Position numbers and translations under genes: made by a program | In this document: positions 23,527-34,068 of the stretch, piece by piece | How positions within the stretch are numbered: the first letter of the stretch is position 1 | How the letters are laid out: each line of letters starts with the position of its first letter | The notes under the pieces: model-generated | Seen by the model: the letters and a program-made list of their open reading frames with translations, nothing else | The model's database searches: none | What the model was told of the DNA's origin: nothing | Source of the DNA: a virus | Lineage: Duplodnaviria; Caudoviricetes | Strand: one strand, 5' to 3' | Length of the DNA stretch: 64,000 nt | Virus record (IMG/VR): IMGVR_UViG_3300036982_000954 | Coordinates: 3,907 to 67,906 of that record

Positions 23527-24546
23527 TCAGGCCATGTGGATGATACCACAGTAGTTGTCCTGATCGCTCCGCATCTGCGGAACCAGGATGGTCATCACCT
23601 TGAAGTGACTGACCATGCCGCCTTCCGTCCGCCACTCGATGGTCTGGACGGGGAGGCCCTGCACCATCCGCACCGTCTCCACGTCCATCTGGACGAGGAG
23701 GACGTTGTGCGCGGTGAGGAAGTCGGCCACGCGGATGCCCGCGATGTTGTCCAACTTCATCAAGCGCTCGCGCACCGTGATGGTGTTCGGGGACGTCGTG
23801 CTGTAGTCGTCGTCCAGCTTCGTCTCGTAGCCGGACGGGACGTACAGCATGTACGGACCATAGCGGCGGTTGTCGATGGCCGCCTGCTTCATGGTCTTCA
23901 CCATGTTCTTGATGTCCTCGCCCGTGCAGGCGGTGGCATCCCACTGCTCCGTCAGCGTGACCGACTCACGGTACGGGTAGTCCATGTACCCGTAGATCGT
24001 GCCGCCACCGTAGGCGAACGTGCTCGCCCCGCAGAACAGCATGTCTTCCGCCTTCTCGGCCACCTTCCTTGCCGCCAACTGCGCCTGCAAGGTATCCAGA
24101 CCGACGTGCCCGCGATTGCGCGACGCGCTGAGGACGCGGATGTTGATCTGGAAGTCCTTGTGGATGATCGGCAAGGGCAGGTACTTGATGCCGAACTTCA
24201 CACGGTCGTTGTTACCCCGCGTAACAGCGTCCATGCTGAGGTTGGCACCGTTCATGTCGCTCACGTCCTCATGCTGCAGGACCGTGGTGCCCATCCCATT
24301 CGGGATGTTCAGCGACAGGCCGCGGCCCATCAGGTCGGTGACACCGACCAGCCGCTTCTGGAAGGCTGCCACGACGGCCTCGTCGTAGTACTTCCACTCG
24401 TCGTGCCGCAACAGGTCGTTCGTGCGCAGGGCGCGGACGTCCATGTTGGTCTGGAGGAGCCGGGTGGCCACGTCGCCGTGACTCTGGCCGTTGTGGATGA
24501 CATCCACGGTAGCCGGGCCGCGAATCCAATTCTTCATTGCGTTCAT
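23527..24546 (-). CDS. major capsid protein (HK97 fold, encapsulin/Linocin-M18-like type)
   Basis: RALRTNDLLRHDEW, LPLPIIHKDF, ARKVAEKAEDM, YGPYMLYVP; extreme GC3 bias; follows scaffold and decoration genes. Confidence 0.9.
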   Translation of the reverse strand: MNAMKNWIRGPATVDVIHNGQSHGDVATRLLQTNMDVRALRTNDLLRHDEWKYYDEAVVAAFQKRLVGVTDLMGRGLSLNIPNGMGTTVLQHEDVSDMNGANLSMDAVTRGNNDRVKFGIKYLPLPIIHKDFQINIRVLSASRNRGHVGLDTLQAQLAARKVAEKAEDMLFCGASTFAYGGGTIYGYMDYPYRESVTLTEQWDATACTGEDIKNMVKTMKQAAIDNRRYGPYMLYVPSGYETKLDDDYSTTSPNTITVRERLMKLDNIAGIRVADFLTAHNVLLVQMDVETVRMVQGLPVQTIEWRTEGGMVSHFKVMTILVPQMRSDQDNYCGIIHMA

Positions 24547-24593: not shown

Positions 24594-25040
24594 TTAGGCA
24601 ATCTCCACTTCAATGAAGGAATCCGGGTCGGCCTTGCTGGAGTCGGACATGTTGACCGCCTCCAACGAGATGCCTACCAGCGCGCCTTCCTTGACCGTGC
24701 CCGAACCCGTCCGCAGCCGGCCATCGCCGTTACTGTAGACAGGCGCATGTTTCGTCACGTTGTAGCCCTGAGCCACGCGGAGCAACATCACGTCGCCCTT
24801 CTGGGGGGCGCGGAAGAAGACTCGGTCCCCCGCCGCGTAGGCTTCCGTGATTTCGTTGCCCTGGTTCTCGTCCTCAAGCGCCACCAGCAGAGGCTGGCAG
24901 TAGTCGAGGCTGTTCCCGTGCCGACGCACAGTGGCCGCCGCCGGAACCCGTTGGAGGATTTCGCCGGGGTAGATAGCCGCCGCCGCAAGCGCCTCCTTGA
25001 TGGGGCCGTCGCTCTGCAGGGTGATCGTGCGATTTGCCAT
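24594..25040 (-). CDS. head decoration / cement protein
   Basis: 148 aa between scaffold and capsid; EALAAAAIYPG, YAAGDRV motifs. Confidence 0.75.
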   Translation of the reverse strand: MANRTITLQSDGPIKEALAAAAIYPGEILQRVPAAATVRRHGNSLDYCQPLLVALEDENQGNEITEAYAAGDRVFFRAPQKGDVMLLRVAQGYNVTKHAPVYSNGDGRLRTGSGTVKEGALVGISLEAVNMSDSSKADPDSFIEVEIA

Positions 25041-25083: not shown

Positions 25084-26331
25084 TTAGGCTCTCGCGTCCA
25101 GCGTCTTCAGCGCGCCCTGCCAGTCGACCTTCGGCGGCTCCGGCACCTTCTCCGCTTCCTCGTCCTCGTTGGCCTCGAAGCCATACCGCAGGGCCATCGC
25201 CGGACTCACGGTCCGCAGCAGGTCGCGCAGTTCGTTCGTCTCCATCGCCATCAGCGACTTCTCGCTGATCTTGACCCTCTTGGTGGCGGTGATCTCGTCC
25301 ACCAACTCGCGCTTCGCCGCTTCCTCGCCCGCATTCTTCACGAGCATCGGAACCAGCTTCGTCACCTTCTCCTCGACCGCCGCATTGATGCGCTGCTGCA
25401 TCAGGGCCTCGAGTTCCTCGTCGGTGACTTCACGGTCGCCCGCCTGCTCGGCGTTCGCGGCGAGCCGCTTCTTGACCTCAGCCTCAACGTTGGCCTTGAA
25501 CTGCTTCTCGGCCTCCGCCTTGGCATCCGCCTCGGCCTTGTCGTCCGCCTGCTTCTTGGTCGTCGCCTCAGCCTTCGCAGCGGCGGCTTCCTCGCGGGCG
25601 TTCACGACCATCTCAAAGGCGTCGGCGTCCAACGCCTCCAGAATGGTCACTTCCTCGTTCGTGGCGAGATTGCTCTTGACGAGCTTCGCCACTGCCTTCT
25701 TGCGGTCCATCGGGACCTCCTCTTCGGTTTGGGTTGCTTTGCTGTTGGTACGCGGGAATCCTGCCCCCGCCTCCCACGAACACGCGCCCTTTTCGTCGGG
25801 CAGCAATGCCAGGTGGTCGGGTCGGTAGTTCTTACTGATTGCGGAATAGGGCTTGCCCTGCCACTCGCCGTTCTGCACGGAGGCTTCGAGGAACAGTCCC
25901 GTGCTGACCTCGATGGGCTTGCCTGCTTCCACTCGACCGGCCAGTTGCGGATTCAGTTTCCGCAGCTTGGACATCTCCAGCCACAACTCGCCCTTGAGGC
26001 GGGGTGCCTCATAGGTCGTATTGTAGACCACGCCGATGTCCACGCGCTTGAGATCGGGTTGGTTCGCGCTCACGCGCTTCCCAGCCTTCTCCGGGTGTTT
26101 GACCGTAACCGGCCGACCATTCCAAGCCTCGGCAAACTTGCTCAGTTCGTCCCCTGTGTAGAGAATGTCGTTCCAGACACCCTCCCGAATCATTACCACA
26201 GGGCCGACCAAGTAGTGTTTACCATCCAACGATTCCGCCCGCATCTTGCCACTTGGCGAGGCAAGGTGGGTGCAGAACCGCTCCTGCAGAGCCGTCTGAT
26301 TTGTGACTAGGTTTTTGTTCGTCCTCCTCAT
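25084..26331 (-). CDS. DUF2213 prohead protease/scaffold protein
   Basis: Start at MRRTNK; VMIREGV, WNGRPVTVKHP, EVSTG, RPDHLALLP..KGACS, then a charged helical scaffold tail. Confidence 0.85.
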   Translation of the reverse strand: MRRTNKNLVTNQTALQERFCTHLASPSGKMRAESLDGKHYLVGPVVMIREGVWNDILYTGDELSKFAEAWNGRPVTVKHPEKAGKRVSANQPDLKRVDIGVVYNTTYEAPRLKGELWLEMSKLRKLNPQLAGRVEAGKPIEVSTGLFLEASVQNGEWQGKPYSAISKNYRPDHLALLPDEKGACSWEAGAGFPRTNSKATQTEEEVPMDRKKAVAKLVKSNLATNEEVTILEALDADAFEMVVNAREEAAAAKAEATTKKQADDKAEADAKAEAEKQFKANVEAEVKKRLAANAEQAGDREVTDEELEALMQQRINAAVEEKVTKLVPMLVKNAGEEAAKRELVDEITATKRVKISEKSLMAMETNELRDLLRTVSPAMALRYGFEANEDEEAEKVPEPPKVDWQGALKTLDARA

Positions 26332-26513
26332 TGTTTCACCTGGGGGTTGAACTCCGCTGCTTGCTTGTACACGATCCCGCGATCTCCAGGGTAGGGCTTG
26401 TCGTGGACCACCTTGCCCTTGCGAATGTCGCGGGGGATACCGTCCGGGAACGCGGCGCAGCAACCGTCCCGCAGGTATCGCTCACACTGCATACAGAAAA
26501 TTGACCAACTCAC
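26328..26513 (-). CDS. small Cys-rich protein (CxxC...CxAFPDGIP), MuF-locus associated
   Basis: CMQC...CCAAFPDGIP...HDKPYPGDRGI motif. Confidence 0.7.
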   Translation of the reverse strand: MSWSIFCMQCERYLRDGCCAAFPDGIPRDIRKGKVVHDKPYPGDRGIVYKQAAEFNPQVKQ

Positions 26514-26983
26514 CCGAAAGCCTCCTTCAGATAAGAGCGCACCGTCGCGGCATCTTGGGGTCCAATGCGATTCATCGCCGATAGGCGGAAAGCACCGAAT
26601 CCGGCCTTGTGGTACACGGTGGGCGGGCTCGTGCGCCGGTCAAAGGCAAAGGTGTGTCCCTCCGCCCGGCGGGTTTCCTCGGTTACCATTTCCTTGCGCA
26701 AGCGCGATTCAGGATGCGTCGTGATTTTGTCGTTGGCCGCGGTGGGGAAGATGGTTTTGCATTCGATGTGCAGCACCTTACCAGAAGGCAGGTATACAAT
26801 TCCATCCAGGGCACTCTGCCCGCCAACGTGCTCAGCGTCCGGGAACAATTCCATCAGCCACTGTTCATCCGCGACCGCGGCCTCGCGCTTTTCCCGGCTG
26901 GCAGGGACGTAGGAATCAATCGCATCCTGCCGCCGATCCAGCAGCAGTAGGGCACGAATCAATTGTTCCCGGCACGTCTTCAC
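26510..26983 (-). CDS. PD-(D/E)XK nuclease-fold protein
   Basis: ALDGIVYL...HIECKT motif; GTG start overlapping the upstream stop. Confidence 0.6.
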   Translation of the reverse strand: MKTCREQLIRALLLLDRRQDAIDSYVPASREKREAAVADEQWLMELFPDAEHVGGQSALDGIVYLPSGKVLHIECKTIFPTAANDKITTHPESRLRKEMVTEETRRAEGHTFAFDRRTSPPTVYHKAGFGAFRLSAMNRIGPQDAATVRSYLKEAFG

Positions 26984-27684
26984 TAGATGCCCCTCGTATC
27001 ATTGAGAAAGACTTTGTCATTGAGGAAGACTTTGCCCGATAGCGGATACCACCCACTCAAGGCCACAAGGCGCGACCGAATGGACTGATCCTGGTCCAGC
27101 ACAAACCCTTCGTCCTTGAACTTGGCAATCCACCAATCATCGGACTTGTTGGTTACATGATGCCAGCCCGTGCCGCCGTGCCCTTCGGTTCCGTGCGCCA
27201 CTACCACAACCTTGCCCAGCCGCAGGGCCGCGAAGACATTGCCCAGGTACTGCTCCTCAACATGCTCCAGCATATCGCAGCACCAGACCAAATCCACCGC
27301 GAAAGACAAGGGCCAGCACCCGGTTGTGAAGTCGTGCTGGTGACAGCAGATTCGCTTGGTCCGCGCTACGCTCACGTTGCGGTCCAGGCCATCCACCCCG
27401 ATACTGAACACCCCCCGCAGGGCAAACCATTCGGCGGCGCCCCCTTCCCCGCAGCCAACGTCGAGGAAGGTTTTGGGCTGGTAGTACCCCAACAGCCAGG
27501 GCCACAGCGTATGGGGGTAGGACGTGCCAGGATCGCCGCCCTCCAGATTGCCCCCCAAATGGGGTTGCTCCGGGTCGGTCACAAAGGCACAGCCACCCGC
27601 TGCGGATACAATCGTACAATCGTCCCGCCGATTGATCTCCGCCGGCTTGATTGCATCCAGCATCGCTTGGTACTTCGCGTTCAC
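26983..27684 (-). CDS. class I SAM-dependent methyltransferase
   Basis: FLDVGCGEG, GVDG, DLVWCCDMLEHV. Confidence 0.85.
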   Translation of the reverse strand: MNAKYQAMLDAIKPAEINRRDDCTIVSAAGGCAFVTDPEQPHLGGNLEGGDPGTSYPHTLWPWLLGYYQPKTFLDVGCGEGGAAEWFALRGVFSIGVDGLDRNVSVARTKRICCHQHDFTTGCWPLSFAVDLVWCCDMLEHVEEQYLGNVFAALRLGKVVVVAHGTEGHGGTGWHHVTNKSDDWWIAKFKDEGFVLDQDQSIRSRLVALSGWYPLSGKVFLNDKVFLNDTRGI

Positions 27685-29834
27685 TTTGACTCCCCTTTCA
27701 CTACTTCACGAGCCGCCTCCCAAGCGGTCCTCAACTTGGCTGGGACTTGCTTTTCCCGACCCCCCAGCATCAGGGTACTGACCTCGGCAAACAACTCGCC
27801 CTCGTCCTCCACCGCCGCCTCGCTAACGTAGCGGGCATCGCGCCGGAGCACCTTGTCCTTCAGCATTACATCGTCGTAAGCGTCGTATTCGGTGCGCACC
27901 TTCTTCAAGAAAGCCATTGCCACTTCCCCATTCTGCTCGAACAGGGCATGGCTGGCCTCATGGAGAGTCAGGTCGCGCACGGGCGCGGGCGAGTCCATCG
28001 CCGTTGACCACCGCCAGCTACGACCCTCCTTGCGCGAGGCAGCCTTGGACGTGAATCCCTTGCGCTCCTGCCACTTCTCGTGCTTGGTGGCGATTTCCCC
28101 CGCCAGCCACGGCAAGTCAGGGGTCAGCAGGATTTCCCGCTTGCCCTGGCTCTCCGCATAGCCTGCATAACTGCCGCGCATTAGCTCGCCGCCTTCCAAC
28201 CGTACCGCATCCAACTGGACGTCCGCCCCCGCGGGCAGGGCCGCGTCCAAGCCCTCCACAACCTCGCGCTGCAAGAGCAACGGAGTGTCCCCCAAATCGA
28301 ACTCCTCGGCCGGCGCGTAGTCAGCCAACTCCTCGGCCGACATATCCCGGATCTCCGGGTTTGCCTCAGACAAGGGCTCGGCCGGTTCTTCCTGCTCTTC
28401 ATCCCACTCGGTCCGGGCCGGCGCCTCATCCCGCAGATCCTCGCTCGGCTCCTCGACCACAGGAACGCAAGTGCATTTGCAATTCGGGTGCAGGGGAATC
28501 ATATTCTCAATCGCGTCCAGCGTGAACTGCTTGCCCTCTAACTCCTCGCACTCCTCGCAGACATTGTCCAGCCCGCTAGTCAGCCATTCGGCGACTACCT
28601 CGACCCCCACCACACCTAGCTCGCGATAGCTCTGGATGGTAGCAACGTGGTGCGCCCGGACAATCTCCGTGCGGGCCAGGGTGCGCGCCCGTGGCAGTGT
28701 CATCCCCTCCACCTCGTTGGCCAACTCACGGGCAATGGCTTTGGGATTCTTCCCGGCCATAACCCCCTCCGCCATAATCCGGCCGATCTGGGCGTCCATC
28801 TTGGCCGTGACCCCCTTCAAATCCCCATAGGCACGGGTGAACAGCATTTCCGCCCGGTCGCGCATTCCGGCCGTCGCTCCCAGCATTGCCGACGCCTGGG
28901 CATCGTCCGCCGGCAGCCGCTTGCCAAACTTGCTGCCGCGCAAGCGGCCGATAGCCTGCCGCGAACCCCGCGCCATTGCCCCCGCCAAGGCATCGTCTAA
29001 CCAGCCCTTCTCGGCTACCCCACCCTCCTCTTCCTCGACCTCCTTCAGCCAGTCCAGGAACATCTGGGTCTTGGACGGGTTGCGGTTGAAGTCGCCCGGC
29101 GCGTTAGTGACCAGGGAATTAGCCGCATACCCCATCATAACATGTTCACCGATGCGCTCCGAAACCTTTAGCCCCAATCTTTGAAGGATACGCTCCATCG
29201 TAGGAGACACTACATCCAACTTCAAGACCGCGCCCATTTCCTCGACTTCCCGAAATGCCCTCAAACCCTCTTGGGCCAACCTAGTCCCTATCCCTTTCCC
29301 CCCGGCCTTGGGGTCAACTACAATATCAAAAGAGAACTCGCCTCCTACGAGGGAAGTAAAGAGTGCTCCCACTACTTTCTTCCCCTCATAAGCCATCGCA
29401 GTCAGTTCCTTATCCGACAAGATATTGATACCGGACTTTTTTGCAATTTCCCAAGCCTGATCTGCTCCGGGGATTTCCCCTTCCTCATCAGCATACAATA
29501 CTTTGCCTGTCCAAGGCCCACTGCCCCCTACTTCCCCCGGCCTGCCTGCATGGCCAAAGTTACCTGAGCCAGCCCCGCCATGCGTGGCCAGCCCGGCTAC
29601 CTCGGGGAAGAAGTGGGGGAACATCTTCTCGATGCGCTCGGCAAGCCGGCGGAAGCGGGCCACGACCTCCCGAACCAGATCGTCCCGCAAATCGCCGGTA
29701 AGCGTCGGGTCCAGGGGCGAAAGGCCGGAGACTAGGGGTTGGCCCTCGTCGTGCGCCGCAGGGGCCTGATTCAGCGTCTGCGGGGCATTCCCCGCGTTCG
29801 CCCTAAGCGCCCTGACTATGCAACTGCACTTCAT
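27681..29834 (-). CDS. MuF (gp7-like) head morphogenesis protein with GNAT insert and C-terminal zincin peptidase
   Basis: Start at MKCSC (ATGA overlap); ARTEIVRAH, VCEEC, IPLHPNCKC (MuF); VDPKAGGKGIGTRL (GNAT); HEASH...ELFAE (zincin). Confidence 0.85.
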   Translation of the reverse strand: MKCSCIVRALRANAGNAPQTLNQAPAAHDEGQPLVSGLSPLDPTLTGDLRDDLVREVVARFRRLAERIEKMFPHFFPEVAGLATHGGAGSGNFGHAGRPGEVGGSGPWTGKVLYADEEGEIPGADQAWEIAKKSGINILSDKELTAMAYEGKKVVGALFTSLVGGEFSFDIVVDPKAGGKGIGTRLAQEGLRAFREVEEMGAVLKLDVVSPTMERILQRLGLKVSERIGEHVMMGYAANSLVTNAPGDFNRNPSKTQMFLDWLKEVEEEEGGVAEKGWLDDALAGAMARGSRQAIGRLRGSKFGKRLPADDAQASAMLGATAGMRDRAEMLFTRAYGDLKGVTAKMDAQIGRIMAEGVMAGKNPKAIARELANEVEGMTLPRARTLARTEIVRAHHVATIQSYRELGVVGVEVVAEWLTSGLDNVCEECEELEGKQFTLDAIENMIPLHPNCKCTCVPVVEEPSEDLRDEAPARTEWDEEQEEPAEPLSEANPEIRDMSAEELADYAPAEEFDLGDTPLLLQREVVEGLDAALPAGADVQLDAVRLEGGELMRGSYAGYAESQGKREILLTPDLPWLAGEIATKHEKWQERKGFTSKAASRKEGRSWRWSTAMDSPAPVRDLTLHEASHALFEQNGEVAMAFLKKVRTEYDAYDDVMLKDKVLRRDARYVSEAAVEDEGELFAEVSTLMLGGREKQVPAKLRTAWEAAREVVKGESK
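29520..29579 (-). repeat. copy 1 of encoded tag GGAGSGNFGHAGRPGEVGGS
   Basis: Translation inside the MuF gene. Confidence 0.95.
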
Positions 29835-30685
29835 ACTGCCTCGACCACTAATCCTTCGGGGTTGGCCATGCGTTCCGCAAAGGTAGGCTTGCGCCGGCGC
29901 GGCGAACGTTGTGCCGCATTGCCCCTCACCCCTGCCTTGCCCCGGCCCTTGACCACCGAAACCTTCACATTCCACTCGCCCCTCACCTGCGTCACTTTCT
30001 CAATCCGATAGGCGGTCCCGGCGGGGAGCAGCACTTCCTTCTCAAATTCGTCGTTCATAAACCTGGGCACCAGCATTCCTGCCCCCTTCGCGCCCGTAAT
30101 GGTAAGCATCACCCGATCCCCGCTTCGGTTAGGAAGCGGGAAGCTTTCCTCGTGGAGGAGGGCGAAGTCTGAAGCAACCTTCCGCTCGATGCTGGTAGAC
30201 TGAAACCCCCGGTCGGAAATGGTGTTGCCCGGAACCAAGCCCTTCAAGAAGTCTTGACCCTCGCCCTGGGGAAAATACAGTCCCCGATAAACCGTATCCT
30301 GCTTGTTAGCAAACGGGCCGGCGTTGGACACGACTTGGTTCATTAGCTGCTGCTCTTTCCCCATCACCCCCTTGAACCTCAAAGCGTGATTCACCAAAGA
30401 ACAGTCATCGCTGAAGTAGCGGTGCATTACCCCGTCCACCAACTGAACCTGCTCGGGCTTGACTCCCGCCGCCTGGTATAACGCCTTCGCTTGGGCGATC
30501 TCCGACTTATGGGAATAGATCATGTCGAAGTACTGGTCGGTCGACATGCTCCCAGGCAGGAATGAGTCCCCAGAAGAAGTACTCCCCCCGACCTCGCCGG
30601 GCCTACCAGCATGGCCAAAGTTCCCGCTACCCGCACCCCCAAGGGTGCGAAAGACGCGGGTAAGCTGTTGCTTGGTAGTCTTCAC
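29831..30685 (-). CDS. ADP-ribosyltransferase (VIP2/ADPrib_exo_Tox-like, R-S-E type)
   Basis: VNHALR, TVYRG, GFQSTS, EKEVLLPAGTAYRI. Confidence 0.85.
   Translation of the reverse strand: MKTTKQQLTRVFRTLGGAGSGNFGHAGRPGEVGGSTSSGDSFLPGSMSTDQYFDMIYSHKSEIAQAKALYQAAGVKPEQVQLVDGVMHRYFSDDCSLVNHALRFKGVMGKEQQLMNQVVSNAGPFANKQDTVYRGLYFPQGEGQDFLKGLVPGNTISDRGFQSTSIERKVASDFALLHEESFPLPNRSGDRVMLTITGAKGAGMLVPRFMNDEFEKEVLLPAGTAYRIEKVTQVRGEWNVKVSVVKGRGKAGVRGNAAQRSPRRRKPTFAERMANPEGLVVEAV
30581..30640 (-). repeat. copy 2 of encoded tag GGAGSGNFGHAGRPGEVGGS
   Basis: Residues 16-35 of the ART. Confidence 0.95.
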
Positions 30686-30686
30686 G

Positions 30687-32210
30687 TTATGCCTTGCGCT
30701 TTTTGCTCAGGGTCATGGGGACTTTCCCGAAGGTGCCCGTCGCGCCCTTGGGAGCGAAGGGTTTGACCGGGGGAATCCCACGGGCTCCGGGCTGGCCGAA
30801 CTTCGCCTGCAACTTCGCCTGCGTTGCCCGATCCTTCTCTTCCTGCTTCGCCCGCACCTTCTCCTGCTGGTCGGCCTCCTGGGCCAACTCCTCAGCATCC
30901 TGCTCGCTGAAGTTCATCACCTTGATTAGGTAGGTCTCAAAGGTCATCACAGCACGCAGACCGCTCTGGACGTAGCTGGTCAGCATCTGGCTATACTGTA
31001 GCCCTAACGCCGCCTTGTCCGCATCAGTGGGCTCGGCCAACTCCGGCCACGTTACCTCATAGTCGGCTTGGGCGGGCAGCACCCGGTTCTGCATGAGTTG
31101 GTCAATCACCGGGCGCAGGATAACCGGCTCGCAGAACTGCTCCCGGCGCTCGTCCAGGCGCGCAATCCAATTGACCTCATCCTGACTGCTGGCCAACTCG
31201 CCCCGTTCCGCACCCTGGAGGATACGTTTGGGAATGCGCGTGTCAATACTGATGAGGGTCAGGATAACGTCCACGACCCCCGCCGGGTCCGCAACCTGCG
31301 AGGGGAAGTCGTGAATCTGCACTCCCTGGAGACGCATATAGCGGCGCAGCTTGTGAATGTAGTCCTCAATCTGCTCGGTCATCGCCGCCTTATCCGTCGC
31401 CCCCATATCCGCCTCGGGATCGGCGATAAAGGCACTGCCCCGGAAGGCACCCTGCCAGTACATCTCCCCGCTGGACCCGATGGTCTGGTCCAGCATATAG
31501 AGGAAGTTATACAAGCGCTGGAGACGCGGGCGCCCATACACCTCGCTCTCCAAAGGACGCTCGATAACGTGAATGCACCGGGAAGCATGGACCAGCACGC
31601 TCTTGTCCGATCCAGTCATCGCCCCAGGGAGCGTCAGATTGTAGGTCTGGGGTAGCCCATAGCGTTCGTCCTTCGTATCCTCGACCCATTGCTGGGGCAT
31701 CGCGTGGAGTTGGCTCAACGGCACCGCATTGGTCAAAGCCAGGGTCTTCCCGCCCCGCACAGGTTCAATCGGATCGACCCCGTCGTTATAGTTCAGGTAC
31801 AATACCCCGTATTGCCCCACCCCGGTCAAACAGTCCAGGATATGCAACTTCTGCAGGATATGCACCCGCTTGTCCAAATCCTTCCACGCCTTGTTGAGGG
31901 CATCCCCGTCCTTCCCGATAGTAGCCGCTTCCCTCCAGCAACCATCCGGGGCGGCATCCACAATGCGTCCCGCAACCGGGTTGCGCTCGTACATGGCCAG
32001 ATAGTCGTACAGGCTTAGCTCACGCTTCCAGCCAAAGGATTTGTAGTAGTCCCGGTTATCGTTGAAGCTACGCCCCAACAGCCCGGCCAGACTATCACGT
32101 GACCCCAAGACCGTGGACAGGGTTCGCAGCCCCAGGAACGTCGAGGCTTGGGCCTGGGCGTTGGTCTGCATTTCCCTCAGCATCTCGGGGGTATATTTGG
32201 TTCGGCGCAT
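30687..32210 (-). CDS. portal protein (DUF1073-like)
   Basis: 507 aa; YERNPVAGRIVD, VGQYGVLY, VHASRCIH, YGRPRL, IPKRILQG; synteny. Confidence 0.85.
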   Translation of the reverse strand: MRRTKYTPEMLREMQTNAQAQASTFLGLRTLSTVLGSRDSLAGLLGRSFNDNRDYYKSFGWKRELSLYDYLAMYERNPVAGRIVDAAPDGCWREAATIGKDGDALNKAWKDLDKRVHILQKLHILDCLTGVGQYGVLYLNYNDGVDPIEPVRGGKTLALTNAVPLSQLHAMPQQWVEDTKDERYGLPQTYNLTLPGAMTGSDKSVLVHASRCIHVIERPLESEVYGRPRLQRLYNFLYMLDQTIGSSGEMYWQGAFRGSAFIADPEADMGATDKAAMTEQIEDYIHKLRRYMRLQGVQIHDFPSQVADPAGVVDVILTLISIDTRIPKRILQGAERGELASSQDEVNWIARLDERREQFCEPVILRPVIDQLMQNRVLPAQADYEVTWPELAEPTDADKAALGLQYSQMLTSYVQSGLRAVMTFETYLIKVMNFSEQDAEELAQEADQQEKVRAKQEEKDRATQAKLQAKFGQPGARGIPPVKPFAPKGATGTFGKVPMTLSKKRKA

Positions 32211-32278
32211 ATAGGGGGATTTCCTAGCTGTTTCCGGGTTTATTCTAGGTTATGGGCTCGGTGGCCTCATAGCTGGGG

Positions 32279-32737
32279 TTACTCTATCGGATTCCCCAAT
32301 GCCTTATCAAAAACCTTGATGGCCGCCTCCTTCGCCGCATACAACTCCCCTTCCTTGTCCCAAGATTTTCTAGCTGCCTCCATAGCCTTATCCGTAACCC
32401 GATCCACCGTCTCACGACTCCTGACTTGCTGCTCCTGAGATAATTTGCGGAAGCGGTCAAACAATTCCTGTCTAGCCCCCCGGCAAGCCTGGAAGGCAGA
32501 TTCCTTCCTGTCCTGCTCCTCCCTGGTTTCCCCCAAAGAGGCTCCCGCTTCAAGCAGCTTCTCAACTTTCCGGTACTCAGTGCGTCCTTTCAATAACGCG
32601 GAAAGACTGATCTTTTCACCACCTTCGTCGCCGCTGCCGCCTACTTCCCCAGGCCTACCAGCATGGCCAAAGTTCCCTGAGCCAGAACCACCAAGGGTCT
32701 TCAAAACCCTGGTCACTTGCTGTTTGTTGGTTTTCAT
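32279..32737 (-). CDS. tagged helical hypothetical protein between terL and portal
   Basis: Start at MKTNK (TAATG overlap with terL); 152 aa. Confidence 0.75.
   Translation of the reverse strand: MKTNKQQVTRVLKTLGGSGSGNFGHAGRPGEVGGSGDEGGEKISLSALLKGRTEYRKVEKLLEAGASLGETREEQDRKESAFQACRGARQELFDRFRKLSQEQQVRSRETVDRVTDKAMEAARKSWDKEGELYAAKEAAIKVFDKALGNPIE
32633..32692 (-). repeat. copy 3 of encoded tag GGSGSGNFGHAGRPGEVGGS
   Basis: Residues 16-35 of the 152-aa protein. Confidence 0.95.
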
Positions 32738-34068
32738 TACCACGCTCCGGCTCGTTTGCGTTTGCTGACTAACTTCGCATGGGCGGAACTGGCGCAATCC
32801 ACTTGGTCGTCGTGGACGAACTCGGTGGGGAAAGCAACCAGTTCATTCAGGAAACAATCATTCCAAATTCCCCGGACGAGGAGAACCAAACCGCCTTCGC
32901 AAGCTGCGCTCAGGGGTTTAGCCCGTTCGTTCTTCGGCCCGGTGCTGGGTTCCCCATGAAAGGCGTAACCGGCCAGCACATTCCGCTTGTAGTGGTCAAT
33001 GACAATCTTCCCACTGGCTCCCGGCTCTTGCTCCATCCAGATCTCACAACTGATTCCGTCTATCGCCGCAGTGGCGCGAATCAGGCGCTCAGTCATGTGG
33101 GGTGAATACTGGACGCGCTGGACGTCCTCAATCAAGTAGGTATTGTCCTGTAACCAACTCATGCGGATTCCCACCGTCCAATCGCCCGCGTCGTCGGTAG
33201 CCGCTAAATCCCACCAGCGCAGGGTGGCCTTGCGCGCCTTGGCGTCCCCCAAACTGACCAGTTTGAACCATTCCCGGCGGAACATGTTGCCCTGCTGGAC
33301 TACGGACCAATCACCGTACCGCAACTGGCGGTGAGTGACGGGGTCCAGTTTGCTGAGGGACCTCTCGTAAGATTCCCGATCCAGGTACGGGTTGTCCTCC
33401 AACGAGGCAGGCAGGAAGACCTTGGACGCGGTGTTGGGGGAATCAATGAAATGGGTCCGGGTTTCCTCGTGCGCCGGGCCACCAGGATTGCTGGCCAGCC
33501 GATAGCGCAGAGGAATGTCCCCCTTGACCTTCTCCAGGCGGCGGCACCGGCTGAATAGGTAACGCTGCTGATTCCAGGGTATCTGAGTGCTTTCATCAAT
33601 TCCAATAAAGTGGAAGGAAGCGGATTGATACCGCAAATGGTCGCTGGACGAGGCCAGATACCCAAATACCAACTTGGCGCCGCTAGGAAAGACCGCTTGC
33701 TTGGCTCCACCATCCCAGTGGACATCGGTGTTGGCTGCCCATTCCACAAACCGATCCATGATTGCCTCGGGCAGCGCCAAGTCCGCATAAGTCTTACGCA
33801 AAATCAGGGCGCTATAGCCAGGAATATCAACATACTGCAGAGCAGCCATTAGAATGCTATCACTCTTCCCTCCGCCCGCCTGACCGCCGTACAGTACCTC
33901 TAGCACATCGTCCAATAGCAGAAAGGCTTCCTGCTTGGGCGTTGGGCTATGCGGTATGTACTTCGACCATTTCGGTGTCAACAGCCTTCTCAGCCTTGGG
34001 CTTGTTGAGCAAGCCTGCTCCAAGGAGGATAGCTGCGACTTCGGCGCGTCTGCCAGCGCTGAGGTCAA
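32737..34068 (-). CDS. terL: terminase large subunit (true start may lie nearer 33981)
   Basis: YGGQAGGGKS Walker A, IGIDE Walker B, SNPGG, WDLAA, HDDQVD nuclease motifs. Confidence 0.95.
   Translation of the reverse strand: MTSALADAPKSQLSSLEQACSTSPRLRRLLTPKWSKYIPHSPTPKQEAFLLLDDVLEVLYGGQAGGGKSDSILMAALQYVDIPGYSALILRKTYADLALPEAIMDRFVEWAANTDVHWDGGAKQAVFPSGAKLVFGYLASSSDHLRYQSASFHFIGIDESTQIPWNQQRYLFSRCRRLEKVKGDIPLRYRLASNPGGPAHEETRTHFIDSPNTASKVFLPASLEDNPYLDRESYERSLSKLDPVTHRQLRYGDWSVVQQGNMFRREWFKLVSLGDAKARKATLRWWDLAATDDAGDWTVGIRMSWLQDNTYLIEDVQRVQYSPHMTERLIRATAAIDGISCEIWMEQEPGASGKIVIDHYKRNVLAGYAFHGEPSTGPKNERAKPLSAACEGGLVLLVRGIWNDCFLNELVAFPTEFVHDDQVDCASSAHAKLVSKRKRAGAW

Follow-up and report, generated by a model that had tools for sequence, protein, structure and literature searches.

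A glycine-rich tag of 20 residues is apparently a very widespread junction motif of tailed viruses that has so far gone undescribed. The tag and the few residues preceding it may form a portable maturation-cleavage and sorting module for capsid-internal cargo, a reading that is based on sequence comparisons and to which we assign a probability of roughly 0.55. The tag was analysed in a 64,000-nt stretch of viral DNA (hereafter the window), whose record represents a complete virus, not a prophage, and has terminal repeats, and in other viral contigs. It was not found in Pfam, NCBIfam or PHROG families, in PDB chains or in the searchable literature, in agreement with the first-pass annotation of the window, which had noted that no functional description of it was known.

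Tag copies and their carriers in the window

The minus strand of the window, to which all coordinates below refer, encodes GG(A/S)GSGNFGHAGRPGEVGGS three times. The first copy (GGAGSGNFGHAGRPGEVGGS; 29520..29579) lies at about residue 86 of a MuF polyprotein, between LATH and a GNAT domain. The second copy (30581..30640) has the same peptide sequence and occupies residues 16-35 of an ADP-ribosyltransferase (ART) after FRTL, and the third (GGSGSGNFGHAGRPGEVGGS; 32633..32692) occupies residues 16-35 of a 152-aa protein (p152) after LKTL. The three copies in unrelated proteins are thus located as first annotated. A degenerate back-translated pattern matched exactly three sites, against 0.13 expected, and none of 100 shuffled sequences reached three. 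DNA identity among the copies was 72-84%. Pairwise, they showed 9-15 base differences, corresponding to 8-13 synonymous codon changes and 0-1 non-synonymous change. Since the copies diverge almost only synonymously, selection acts on the peptide, as had been proposed from their codons.

The ART (29831..30685; PF03496, R-S-ExE) retains the conserved residues R134, S163 and E215-x-E217, and its structure model was disordered at residues 1-45 and folded at residues 49-246. The start of p152 (32279..32737), a helical protein of no known family, overlaps the stop codon of the terminase large subunit (TerL). The polyprotein (27681..29834) consists of an N-terminal segment, the tag, the GNAT domain, a MuF domain (SPP1 gp7-like) and a C-terminal zincin-like domain with an HExxH motif (HEASH; 27948..27962). 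The start codon of the polyprotein and the stop codon of the ART overlap (ATGA), and the public gene call begins 48 codons further downstream.

A 15-aa leader had been reported as shared by two carriers and by a nuclease. The leaders of the ART (V/M-KTTKQQLTRVFRTL; 30641..30685) and p152 (MKTNKQQVTRVLKTL; 32693..32737) are indeed identical at 10 of 15 residues. The likeness is weaker for a 157-aa ORF (26510-26983), the supposed nuclease, whose leader-like N-terminus (V/M-KTCREQLIRALLLL; 26939..26983) shares 6-7 of 15 residues with the two leaders and has no tag after it. Its identity as a nuclease is unsupported, as the ORF had no Pfam, PHROG or NCBIfam match and weak Atlas leads only. Outside the window, leaders of 8-60 aa precede half of the first tags, and the leader is not a conserved sequence, as first thought, but can be any hydrophobic or amphipathic stretch of short length that has a lineage-specific P4-P1 motif at its end (P1 being the residue before GG).

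All the tag carriers in the window sit between TerL (32737..34068), the upstream boundary of the head module, and the gene for a DUF2213 protease-scaffold fusion (25084..26334), confirming the placement between terminase and scaffold genes. The module also encodes a portal protein (PF06381; 30687..32210), which in relatives is fused via the tag to downstream cargo, and a major capsid protein (MCP; 23527..24546) of the DUF6260/Linocin_M18-like HK97 fold. A motif seen before tags, [L/F/P][R/K]T[L/N], recurs in four places of these head proteins. In the MCP, LRTN at residues 40-43 (ALRTN/D; 24418..24429) is a candidate propeptide cleavage site directly preceding the HK97-fold domain match, which starts at residue 46; the corresponding N-terminal region of related MCPs has ELRTA/D, GLRAL/S, SLRTL/S or EFRAL/A. 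PRTN marks the protease/scaffold junction (GAGFPRTN/S; 25744..25755), and in relatives the tag is inserted at this junction, a few residues beyond the motif and shortly past the end of the protease domain. LKTL, the same residues that precede the p152 tag, is found at the scaffold C-end (ALKTL/DARA; 25099..25110), four residues from the C-terminus. Finally, LRTL occurs near the portal N-terminus at residues 28-31 (GLRTL/S; 32118..32129). The regular expression used for these other head proteins, composed after the tags were seen, gave 10 matches against 4.1 ± 2.0 in shuffles, a modest enrichment.

Consensus and spread of the tag among viruses

Comparison of 169 distinct viral copies showed the tag to be invariant at 15 positions, with the consensus [P1]-GGxGSGN[F/W]GHxGRPGxxGGS. 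At an E-value cut-off of 1e-3 a profile search detected 6,209 protein clusters, and at 1e-10 it detected 1,044. Tag-bearing contigs fell into bins of over 12 bacterial phyla and of archaea (Nitrosotalea, Methanomassiliicoccales and Methanospirillum), so that the tag is probably carried by viruses of many bacterial phyla and also of archaea. Up to nine tag-matching stretches occurred per protein and many tags per genome; in two genomes (G018 and G019) they were scattered genome-wide on function-unassigned proteins.

The position of the tag follows simple rules. In viral loci, at least 99 residues followed the tag in every complete case except one (69 aa), at least eight residues always preceded it, no ORF started at the tag, and the tag was never found at a true C-terminus. 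These rules fit a site acting on what lies downstream. In an independent set, the segments between tags were domain-sized (median 202 aa), and the domain architectures around tags were mosaic. The tag was preceded by a short leader (8-60 aa) or else by a domain of the portal, MuF or protease type. Of 59 long segments upstream of it, 23 were portals, five were MuF, four DUF2213 and four Peptidase_S78. The domains downstream are effector-like as judged from their family matches, which include ADP-ribosyltransferases, DRAT, Topo IB, zeta toxin, Ntox50, GNAT, NUDIX, PBECR3, glutamine deamidase and zincins. Relatives carry ART-PolyVal, ParB_N, Topo IB and ATLF.

The predicted linkage of the tag to head modules was borne out in other genomes by the portal fusions and by the distance from MuF to the nearest tag (a median of 1.7 kb, and no more than 10 kb for 29 of 30 records). 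MuF was present in 12 and DUF2213 in 10 of the 15 complete tag-bearing records, and neither is common to all tag-bearing genomes. The same applies to any one MCP or portal family. The DUF6260/Linocin-like MCP belongs to one lineage only (above the family cut-off in 8 of 51 records), and tags are fused to two different portal families. At the protease-scaffold junction of close relatives, decayed tags (H to Q, P to A) were found, and the tag is therefore dispensable at this junction.

Structure models of the tag and the DUF2213 protein

AlphaFold gave the tag a pLDDT below 50 in two contexts, in each case next to well-folded domains. As modelled, the tag is an intrinsically disordered linear motif, and AlphaFold did not place it in the fused DUF2213 protease. 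The DUF2213 domain, which is fused to a coiled-coil scaffold, was modelled with a pLDDT of about 96. Its top Foldseek match was T4 gp21 (5jbl; probability 1.00, TM 0.54, although with an E-value of only 9e-3 for the full 665-aa query), followed by herpesvirus proteases. With the predicted T4 gp21/herpesvirus fold and the scaffold fusion in the head module, the DUF2213 protein classifies as an assemblin-fold prohead protease.

The residue before the tag and the prohead protease

P1 was identical in 92% of within-contig pairs against 23% expected, while P2-P4 varied. It is genome-specific and sorts perfectly by the protease family encoded on the contig: D in canonical DUF2213 contigs (28/28), K in contigs with Peptidase_S78 (10/10) or S78_2 (3/3), and L, A, H, N, Q or M in window-like DUF2213 contigs (13/13). 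The preferences at P4-P2 are likewise specific to the protease class. The K in S78 contigs agrees with the known HK97 cleavage at K103/S104 (PMC10275583). The covariation rests on three or four deep lineages, and therefore shared ancestry without functional coupling could also produce it. Eight complete tag-bearing genomes, including G009, G018, G019, G023 and G039, had no detectable DUF2213, S78 or S78_2 protease. The first-pass annotation had suggested that tagged enzymes are handed to the portal or ejection path. As P1 changes together with the protease family, and the motif recurs at putative processing positions of the capsid protein and scaffold, the evidence points to recognition by the prohead protease more than to a portal hand-off.

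Proposed function of the tag and alternatives

We propose a grammar that begins with a carrier domain or with a leader (8 aa or longer) and continues with lineage-specific P4-P1 residues, the tag, a Gly/Ser linker and an enzyme domain. This order, suggested at first from the window, recurs there and in hundreds of other viral contigs, with the cleavage position as its predicted element. Cargo would enter the procapsid by fusion to a head-internal protein (portal, MuF or protease-scaffold), and stand-alone cargo, such as the ART and p152, through leader plus tag. The phage's own assemblin-fold prohead protease, which in the window would be the DUF2213-scaffold protein, may then cut between P1 and the first Gly, as the covariation of P1 suggests. 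Within the head, the cut would release every enzyme domain, which would then begin with the 20-mer and be ready to exit with the DNA.

Proteases normally read 4-8 residues. Cleavage alone does not account for a P′ side with 15 invariant residues in phages whose proteases show no detectable similarity in sequence. The 20-mer stays near-invariant even where lineages differ in their capsid, portal and protease families, and therefore would have an additional generic role. It may be an extended element for protease recognition or docking, or a handle for retention or ejection. A broader claim, which we consider possible but doubtful, is that the 20-mer is an address label, universal and portable, for the interior of tailed-virus capsids in Bacteria and Archaea, whatever the capsid, portal or protease family. 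The label would recruit the attached protein, in the simplest case by docking to the complex of assemblin-fold protease and scaffold, and after the cut would act as a handle for exit with the DNA. If so, the tag would be to phage heads what signal peptides are to secretion, and would offer a ready tool to package chosen proteins into phage particles.

The extreme invariance over 20 residues would suit one fixed binding partner better than a scissile site, and stand-alone cargo with a mere 8-15 aa leader needs a route into the head. The tag could thus be an uncleaved peptide for cargo loading or docking, which binds a component of the procapsid or of the DNA exit path like an encapsulin cargo peptide or a secretion signal and has P1 in its docking surface; the window MCP indeed matches the encapsulin shell family Linocin_M18. 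We consider this improbable, because MuF, DUF2213, the DUF6260 MCP and the two portal families leave no candidate receptor common to all tag-bearing genomes, docking would be redundant on proteins already joined to portal, protease or scaffold, no tag in the viral loci forms a true C-terminus, and P1 follows the protease family.

Cleavage by an enzyme other than the prohead protease appears less probable again. Here the tags would be cut by the zincin-like metallopeptidase domains of the polyvalent proteins themselves, or would be self-cleaving. In favour, the tag has invariant Ser, Asn, His and Arg, and autoprocessing by such domains was predicted by Iyer et al. 2017 (PMC5512222) for polyvalent proteins at large. 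The nearest Atlas clusters of the HExxH domain in the MuF polyprotein include 'Pro-Pro endopeptidase family' (score 0.95), and HExxH in a typical zincin context was found in 16 of 152 tag-bearing ORFs, against about three expected by a rough estimate from typical residue frequencies. However, only 15 of 114 loci have a zincin-like domain in the tag-bearing ORF, and a disordered peptide of 20 residues has no fold to strain a bond. Moreover, P1 sorts with the prohead protease family, and the MCP and scaffold of the window share the P-side motif.

About as unlikely is an uncleaved structural joint, in which the period-3 glycines (GNF-GHx-GRP-Gxx-GGS, five Gly-X-Y triplets) would form a polyproline-II or collagen-like segment that bundles cargo or acts as a hinge, and that spread by easing domain shuffling. 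Gly is invariant every three residues along a 13-residue stretch and semi-conserved in two additional triplets, and the many tags per protein and genome and the mosaic architectures would be in keeping with such a joint. A stable collagen helix needs more than five triplets, however, and AlphaFold shows no ordered structure. A hinge could also do without the specific invariant side chains (N, F/W, H, R, P and S) and without a genome-specific P1, and the obligatory leader of stand-alone genes would be left unexplained.

Finally, a host-directed tag, such as a peptide that makes ribosomes pause or skip between domains, or a target for a protease or chaperone of the host, is very unlikely: a universally conserved cellular partner would account for the invariance across unrelated phage lineages, and 2A and arrest peptides are of similar size, but the host phyla and archaea differ in ribosome tunnels and proteases, P1 covaries with a phage-encoded enzyme, and pausing would be of no obvious use for a leader and tag at the extreme N-terminus of a single-domain protein.

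Comparison with known systems

The tag does not correspond to an AT-hook, which has R-G-R-P with basic flanks. It contains G-R-P only, preceded by A, E, S, K or G and followed by G-E/K/Q, where acidic residues are common. Double-glycine leaders are 15-30 aa long, end in GG and are cut after GG by the C39 peptidase domain of the exporter. The sequences before the tag range from 8 aa to whole domains, and the lineage-specific residue directly precedes GG instead of lying at -4, -7 or -12. No C39 match was found among the scanned tag carriers or cargo.

Encapsulin cargo-loading peptides are also short disordered peptides that address diverse enzymes into an HK97-fold shell, as presumed for the tag, and the shell family is the one matched by the window MCP. 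They centre on GSL-type motifs and are usually C-terminal. We rejected this identity for the tag, as its consensus differs, it never ends a complete protein in the viral loci and the shell family is inconstant.

The cut that HK97 gp4 (Peptidase_S78) makes in the capsid protein at K103/S104 has a parallel in the tag-bearing phages with S78 or S78_2, which always have K before the tag and then a small residue. HK97 substrates lack the 20-mer, and an equivalence in specificity would extrapolate from one characterised enzyme.

Polyvalent proteins (Iyer, Burroughs, Anand, de Souza, Aravind 2017, PMC5512222) and MuF polymorphic toxins (Jamet et al. 2017, PMC5576092) are presumed to enter the head and to be injected, and their predicted processing has been ascribed to zincin domains. 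The multi-tag proteins belong to this type, as they string together MuF, ART-PolyVal, ParB_N, Topo IB, zincin and toxin domains in head modules. The window polyprotein combines GNAT, MuF and HExxH domains and hence is a polyvalent protein in the sense of several unrelated domains in one polypeptide. MuF polymorphic toxins have an N-terminal MuF domain and a variable C-terminal toxin, with an immunity gene next to them, and belong to temperate phages. The window polyprotein is not one of them, as MuF is central, with GNAT upstream and the zincin-like domain downstream, the ART is a separate upstream gene, and the record is not a prophage. A text search of both papers found neither the tag motif nor any glycine-rich junction. 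The tag differs from these descriptions in defining the junction at residue level and in its putative link to the prohead protease, and it also occurs on single-domain stand-alone genes and in portal and protease-scaffold fusions.

The closest parallel is the processing by gp21 and the capsid-targeting sequences of T4 internal proteins (IPI-III and Alt), together with the head-protein propeptides of phiKZ and SPN3US. There is no sequence similarity: the T4 capsid-targeting sequence and (L/I)xE are unlike [K/D/L/N/A]-GGxGSGN[FW]GHxGRPGxxGGS. The T4-type sites are short, degenerate and conserved on the P side, whereas the tag has 20 residues with 15 invariant ones and lies on the P′ side. The tag is also common to lineages with different protease, capsid and portal families, and it has internal copies as well, with up to nine in one polyprotein. 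For T4, targeting and cleavage have been shown experimentally, and for the tag they are predicted from sequence. In both cases, short N-terminal extensions are found on enzymes packaged, or presumably packaged, in the head, ADP-ribosyltransferases are among the actual or putative cargo, and one processing motif, putative in the tag-bearing phages, is common to cargo, scaffold and capsid protein, where an assemblin-fold prohead protease cuts in T4 and would cut in the tag-bearing phages. By this comparison, the T4 capsid-targeting sequence is not a relative of the tag but a functional analogy to it.

Tag copies in the head module

The window was taken from a complete virus genome (67.9 kb, direct terminal repeats), and the head module of the window is encoded on the minus strand. 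In order, this module comprises genes for TerL (32737-34068), a 152-aa protein (p152; 32279-32737), a portal (PF06381; 30687-32210), an ADP-ribosyltransferase (ART, PF03496; 29831-30685), a GNAT-MuF polyprotein (27681-29834), a class I SAM-dependent methyltransferase (26983-27684), a 157-aa ORF (26510-26983), a DUF2213 protease-scaffold fusion (25084-26334), a decoration protein (24594-25040) and a DUF6260/Linocin-like major capsid protein (MCP; 23527-24546). The methyltransferase, located between MuF and the protease, has neither leader nor tag. The genes are tightly packed: the ATG of p152 overlaps the TerL stop codon by one base (32735-32739), the GTG start of the ART follows the portal stop codon one base later, and the MuF start codon shares the tetranucleotide ATGA (29831-29834) with the stop codon of the ART. 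In relatives, the portal and the tagged cargo form a single ORF. The ART ends in residues 249-284 (29831-29940), which are basic and disordered (…RGNAAQRSPRRRKPTFAERMANPEG…), and this tail overlaps with the longest reading frame for MuF.

The first-pass annotation had reported a 20-residue tag, GG(A/S)GSGNFGHAGRPGEVGGS, in the MuF polyprotein (29520-29579), the ART (30581-30640) and p152 (32633-32692). The three minus-strand copies were found exactly at these places and nowhere else in the window, where a degenerate form of the pattern gave three tag sites against 0.13 expected. Between any two copies, 9-15 of the 60 bases differ, amounting to 8-13 synonymous and 0-1 non-synonymous codon changes. 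Since the differences are almost wholly synonymous, selection maintains the peptide, as had been proposed. A recent DNA duplication or a recombination site was ruled out by the same synonymous differences and by a longest identical run of about 14 nt. The further claim of a common 15-aa leader held for the ART and p152 (10 of 15 residues identical); the leader of the 157-aa ORF resembles these more weakly (6-7 of 15), and this ORF carries no tag. The same ORF had been called a nuclease; it had no family match in Pfam, PHROGs or NCBIfam, and a D...ExK-like stretch, LHIECK, is the sole hint of such a function.

The C-terminal ~230 residues of the MuF polyprotein (27681-28400, minus strand) had no Pfam match. 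They contain an HExxH motif (HEASH, 27948-27962), and their nearest Atlas clusters include a "Pro-Pro endopeptidase family protein" (0.95) and Peptidase_M90. This region is probably a zincin metallopeptidase of the kind placed in polyvalent proteins by Iyer et al. The closest isolate relatives of the window MuF are MuF proteins of haloarchaeal viruses (about 29% identity). Whole-protein searches returned just distant MuF and ART relatives, none with evidence of tags.

Distribution and conservation of the tag

A scan of IMG/VR with the back-translated tag core recovered at least 113 contigs holding at least 183 copies. Among the matches listed, 15 of the 20 positions were invariant in 169 distinct copies, and seven of these 15 were not forced by the search pattern. 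From GN onward a glycine occupies each third residue (GNF-GHx-GRP-Gxx-GGS), and a Gly/Ser-rich linker comes after the tag. All copies lay on one strand in 49 of 51 viral records (among the matches listed), and a reversed control pattern gave zero matches in viral records. Of 1.84 billion cluster representatives, 6,209 matched a profile of the tag at E ≤ 1e-3, and 1,044 still did so at E ≤ 1e-10; single proteins contained as many as nine or ten matching stretches. Among 185,579 species genomes, only 62 tag-bearing stretches were found. These were distributed over more than a dozen bacterial phyla and three archaeal bins, namely Nitrosotalea, Methanomassiliicoccales and Methanospirillum (genome-contig loci L148, L160 and L166). 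Metagenome binning may err in the case of an individual contig. Isolate genomes with the tag include those of Oscillibacter sp. PC13, Laspinema palackyanum D2a and Candidatus Desulfosporosinus nitrosoreducens.

When 21 tagged ARTs, otherwise 21-35% identical, were aligned, the sole invariant columns were 14 tag residues, the catalytic S and the ExE motif; tag residue N22 and the catalytic R134 were near-invariant. Decayed tags (H to Q, P to A) occur at the protease-scaffold junction in close relatives. Natural variants in the proteins P0253, P0255 and P0100 and at locus L058 (6015-7319) include H to Q and P to A at this junction, a tagged ART with F in place of N, and a form with H in place of F (GNHGH). 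Such variants could act as natural experiments on the importance of single residues.

No Pfam, NCBIfam or PHROG model spans the tag, and it was absent from all PDB chains in a profile search. A tblastn search against 50,697 GenBank phages gave no match, the low-complexity filter probably masking the tag. The motif was not found in print by a literature search, and the full texts of Iyer et al. 2017 on polyvalent proteins (PMC5512222) and Jamet et al. 2017 on MuF toxins (PMC5576092) contain neither the motif nor a glycine-rich junction.

Architecture of tagged proteins

The first-pass annotation expected the tag to join diverse domains in the vicinity of head genes. A pattern search with the attached domains tabulated bore this out: effector-like domains lay downstream of the tag, portal, MuF or protease upstream, and MuF nearby. 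Among the 176 copies in the viral matches listed, no true C-terminal tag was present, and complete downstream segments were at least 99 aa long with one exception of 69 aa. Likewise, no ORF in the viral loci among the matches listed begins at the tag; half of the first tags are preceded by 8-60 aa of leader. Such leaders vary in sequence but share a hydrophobic or amphipathic character (e.g. MKLTLRFK and MHWLGLLK). In 150 independent multi-tag proteins, the segments between tags were at least 55 aa long (median 202 aa), and fewer than 60 residues followed the last tag in five, possibly by truncation at contig ends.

The commonest domain downstream of the tag was ADP-ribosyltransferase. Other downstream domains were DRAT, Topo IB, zeta toxin, Ntox50, GNAT, NUDIX, PBECR3, glutamine deamidase, PI3/4-kinase-like and ATLF-like zincin domains, and about two thirds of the downstream segments had no Pfam match. 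Upstream, 23 of 59 long segments contained a portal (among the matches listed), and the remainder included NUDIX, MuF, DUF2213 and Peptidase_S78. In four relatives of the window protease, the tag is located shortly past the end of the protease domain (...GACSxxxGAGF...) and before the scaffold part. The distance from MuF to the nearest tag had a median of 1.7 kb and was within 10 kb in 29 of 30 records with MuF above the cut-off, among the matches listed.

In a ~100-kb phage (locus L072, 1850-7947, minus strand), the MuF gene is followed by four tandem paralogous ARTs of ~390 aa. Each ART has a W-type tag (GNWGH) behind an ...RR[FM]D leader of its own, and a further conserved element, GGGxHNRx, lies just past the tag. 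The 22-kb record IMGVR_UViG_3300010353_000664 (G026, locus L038) has eleven tags. Five of them fall in a 1,301-aa polyprotein that lacks any Pfam domain; others are on a protein with ATLF-like zincin and topoisomerase IB and on a GNAT. Two complete genomes with terminal repeats, G018 (77.5 kb) and G019 (74 kb), have no detectable MuF, DUF2213 or S78. Their 5-6 tags (loci L114-L118) are scattered over tens of kb on small proteins with leaders of 8-11 aa (e.g. MKLTLRFK and MTIKLLVCVK), for which family searches returned only two PHROGs of unknown function and one sub-threshold GNAT match.

The residue before the tag and the prohead protease

No structural gene was common to all tag-bearing genomes listed. 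MuF was present in 39 of 50 records and 12 of 15 complete ones (among the matches listed), and its lack in three of the 15 complete records listed rules it out as the tag receptor. DUF2213, present in 27 of 50 records and 10 of 15 complete ones (among the matches listed), is similarly ruled out as a universal partner. A single MCP family was also rejected, because the DUF6260 capsid protein is confined, among the matches listed, to the window's own lineage. The tag-fused portals belong to two different families.

The residue just before the GG of the tag (P1) was identical in 92% of within-contig pairs versus 23% by chance, while P2-P4 vary. Among the matches listed, P1 follows the family of the prohead protease encoded on the same contig, with no exceptions. 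It was D in 28 of 28 cases with a canonical DUF2213 (E < 1e-30), K with Peptidase_S78 (10 of 10) and with Peptidase_S78_2 (XkdF; 3 of 3), and L, A, H, N, Q or M in all 13 cases with a divergent, window-like DUF2213. HK97 gp4, the type S78 enzyme, cuts its own capsid protein at K103/S104 (PMC10275583). Preferences at P4-P2 are class-specific too; those of the window class are L/P/I at P4, R/K at P3 and T/A/V at P2, with L/A/H at P1.

The three window tags are preceded by FRTL, LKTL and LATH. A similar motif, [L/F/P][R/K]T[L/N] with a small or acidic residue behind it, is found four more times in the window head proteins, all on the minus strand (nucleotide positions are those of the four-residue motif): ALRTN|D at MCP residues 39-43 (24418-24429), three residues ahead of the HK97-fold domain match; GAGFPRTN|S at the protease-scaffold junction (25744-25755); ALKTL|DARA four residues from the scaffold C-terminus (25099-25110); and GLRTL|S at residue 31 in the N-terminal region of the portal (32118-32129). 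The regular expression was devised post hoc and is modestly enriched, with 10 matches versus 4.1 ± 2.0 in shuffled sequences. The corresponding N-terminal region of the MCPs of four related genomes contains ELRTA|D, GLRAL|S, SLRTL|S and EFRAL|A, a comparison by eye of only five MCPs whose N-termini align poorly. The motif falls at positions of the kinds known for maturation, as would be expected if a single protease reads them all; the four places in the window are candidate maturation sites of the DUF2213 protease.

In an AlphaFold model of a natural DUF2213-tag-scaffold fusion, the protease domain was confident (pLDDT about 96), and its best structural matches were T4 gp21 and the herpesvirus assemblins. 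The modelled fold thus identifies DUF2213 as a prohead protease. The tag and its flanks had a pLDDT below 50 in both AlphaFold models, beside well-folded domains, suggesting that the tag behaves as a disordered linear motif and not as a mini-domain. The tag of the fusion, modelled in cis, was disordered and undocked in the protease, which says little either way.

A proposed maturation-cleavage and sorting module

The simplest account is that the tag is a maturation-cleavage and sorting module. It builds on the observed motif and grammar, the linkage to head modules, the association of P1 with protease family and the fold of the protease. Cargo would enter the procapsid fused to a head-internal carrier or by means of its leader and tag. 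The prohead protease would then cut, presumably between P1 and GG, and the enzyme domain, now beginning with the 20-mer, would be released within the head, perhaps to be ejected. The 15 invariant residues on the tag side of the putative cut persist across lineages whose proteases, MCPs and portals show no detectable relationship, which suggests a second, generic role. This role could consist in docking to an exosite of the assemblin fold, in acting as a handle for retention or ejection, or in packing of the polyproline-II type.

A peptide that serves for docking only would fit fewer of the observations. The same applies to processing by zincin domains, which occur in 16 of 152 tag-bearing ORFs (among the matches listed), the window MuF polyprotein included, and to an uncleaved structural hinge. 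A host-directed peptide, aimed at a host ribosome or protease, also fits fewer of the observations and is unlikely because the tag is spread over bacterial and archaeal bins.

If read as a cleavage and sorting module, the tag is a sequence-searchable, residue-level marker of capsid cargo in uncultivated viruses, and makes their cargo selection directly testable. It yields a catalogue of thousands of candidate injected effectors, about two thirds without a known domain, and allows the domain boundaries and mature N-termini of giant polyvalent proteins to be predicted. For three families of prohead protease, the P1 pattern amounts to a specificity code that can be tested; we know of no characterised substrates for two of them, the DUF2213 and XkdF-like enzymes. 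Should the 20-mer be sufficient for loading, it could be put to practical use as a tag for delivering proteins with phage particles.

Comparison with known systems

To our knowledge, the way in which proteins are selected to ride in the capsid and reach the host along with the DNA has been worked out only for a small number of model phages, among them T4, P1 and N4. As far as our searches reach, the near-invariance of the tag, its spread through viruses of bacteria and probably archaea, and its association at residue level with protease families are undescribed. The module itself is of a kind already known: protease-processed addressing of head-internal proteins occurs in T4 and phiKZ-like phages, and polyvalent proteins are a further known system to which it can be likened.
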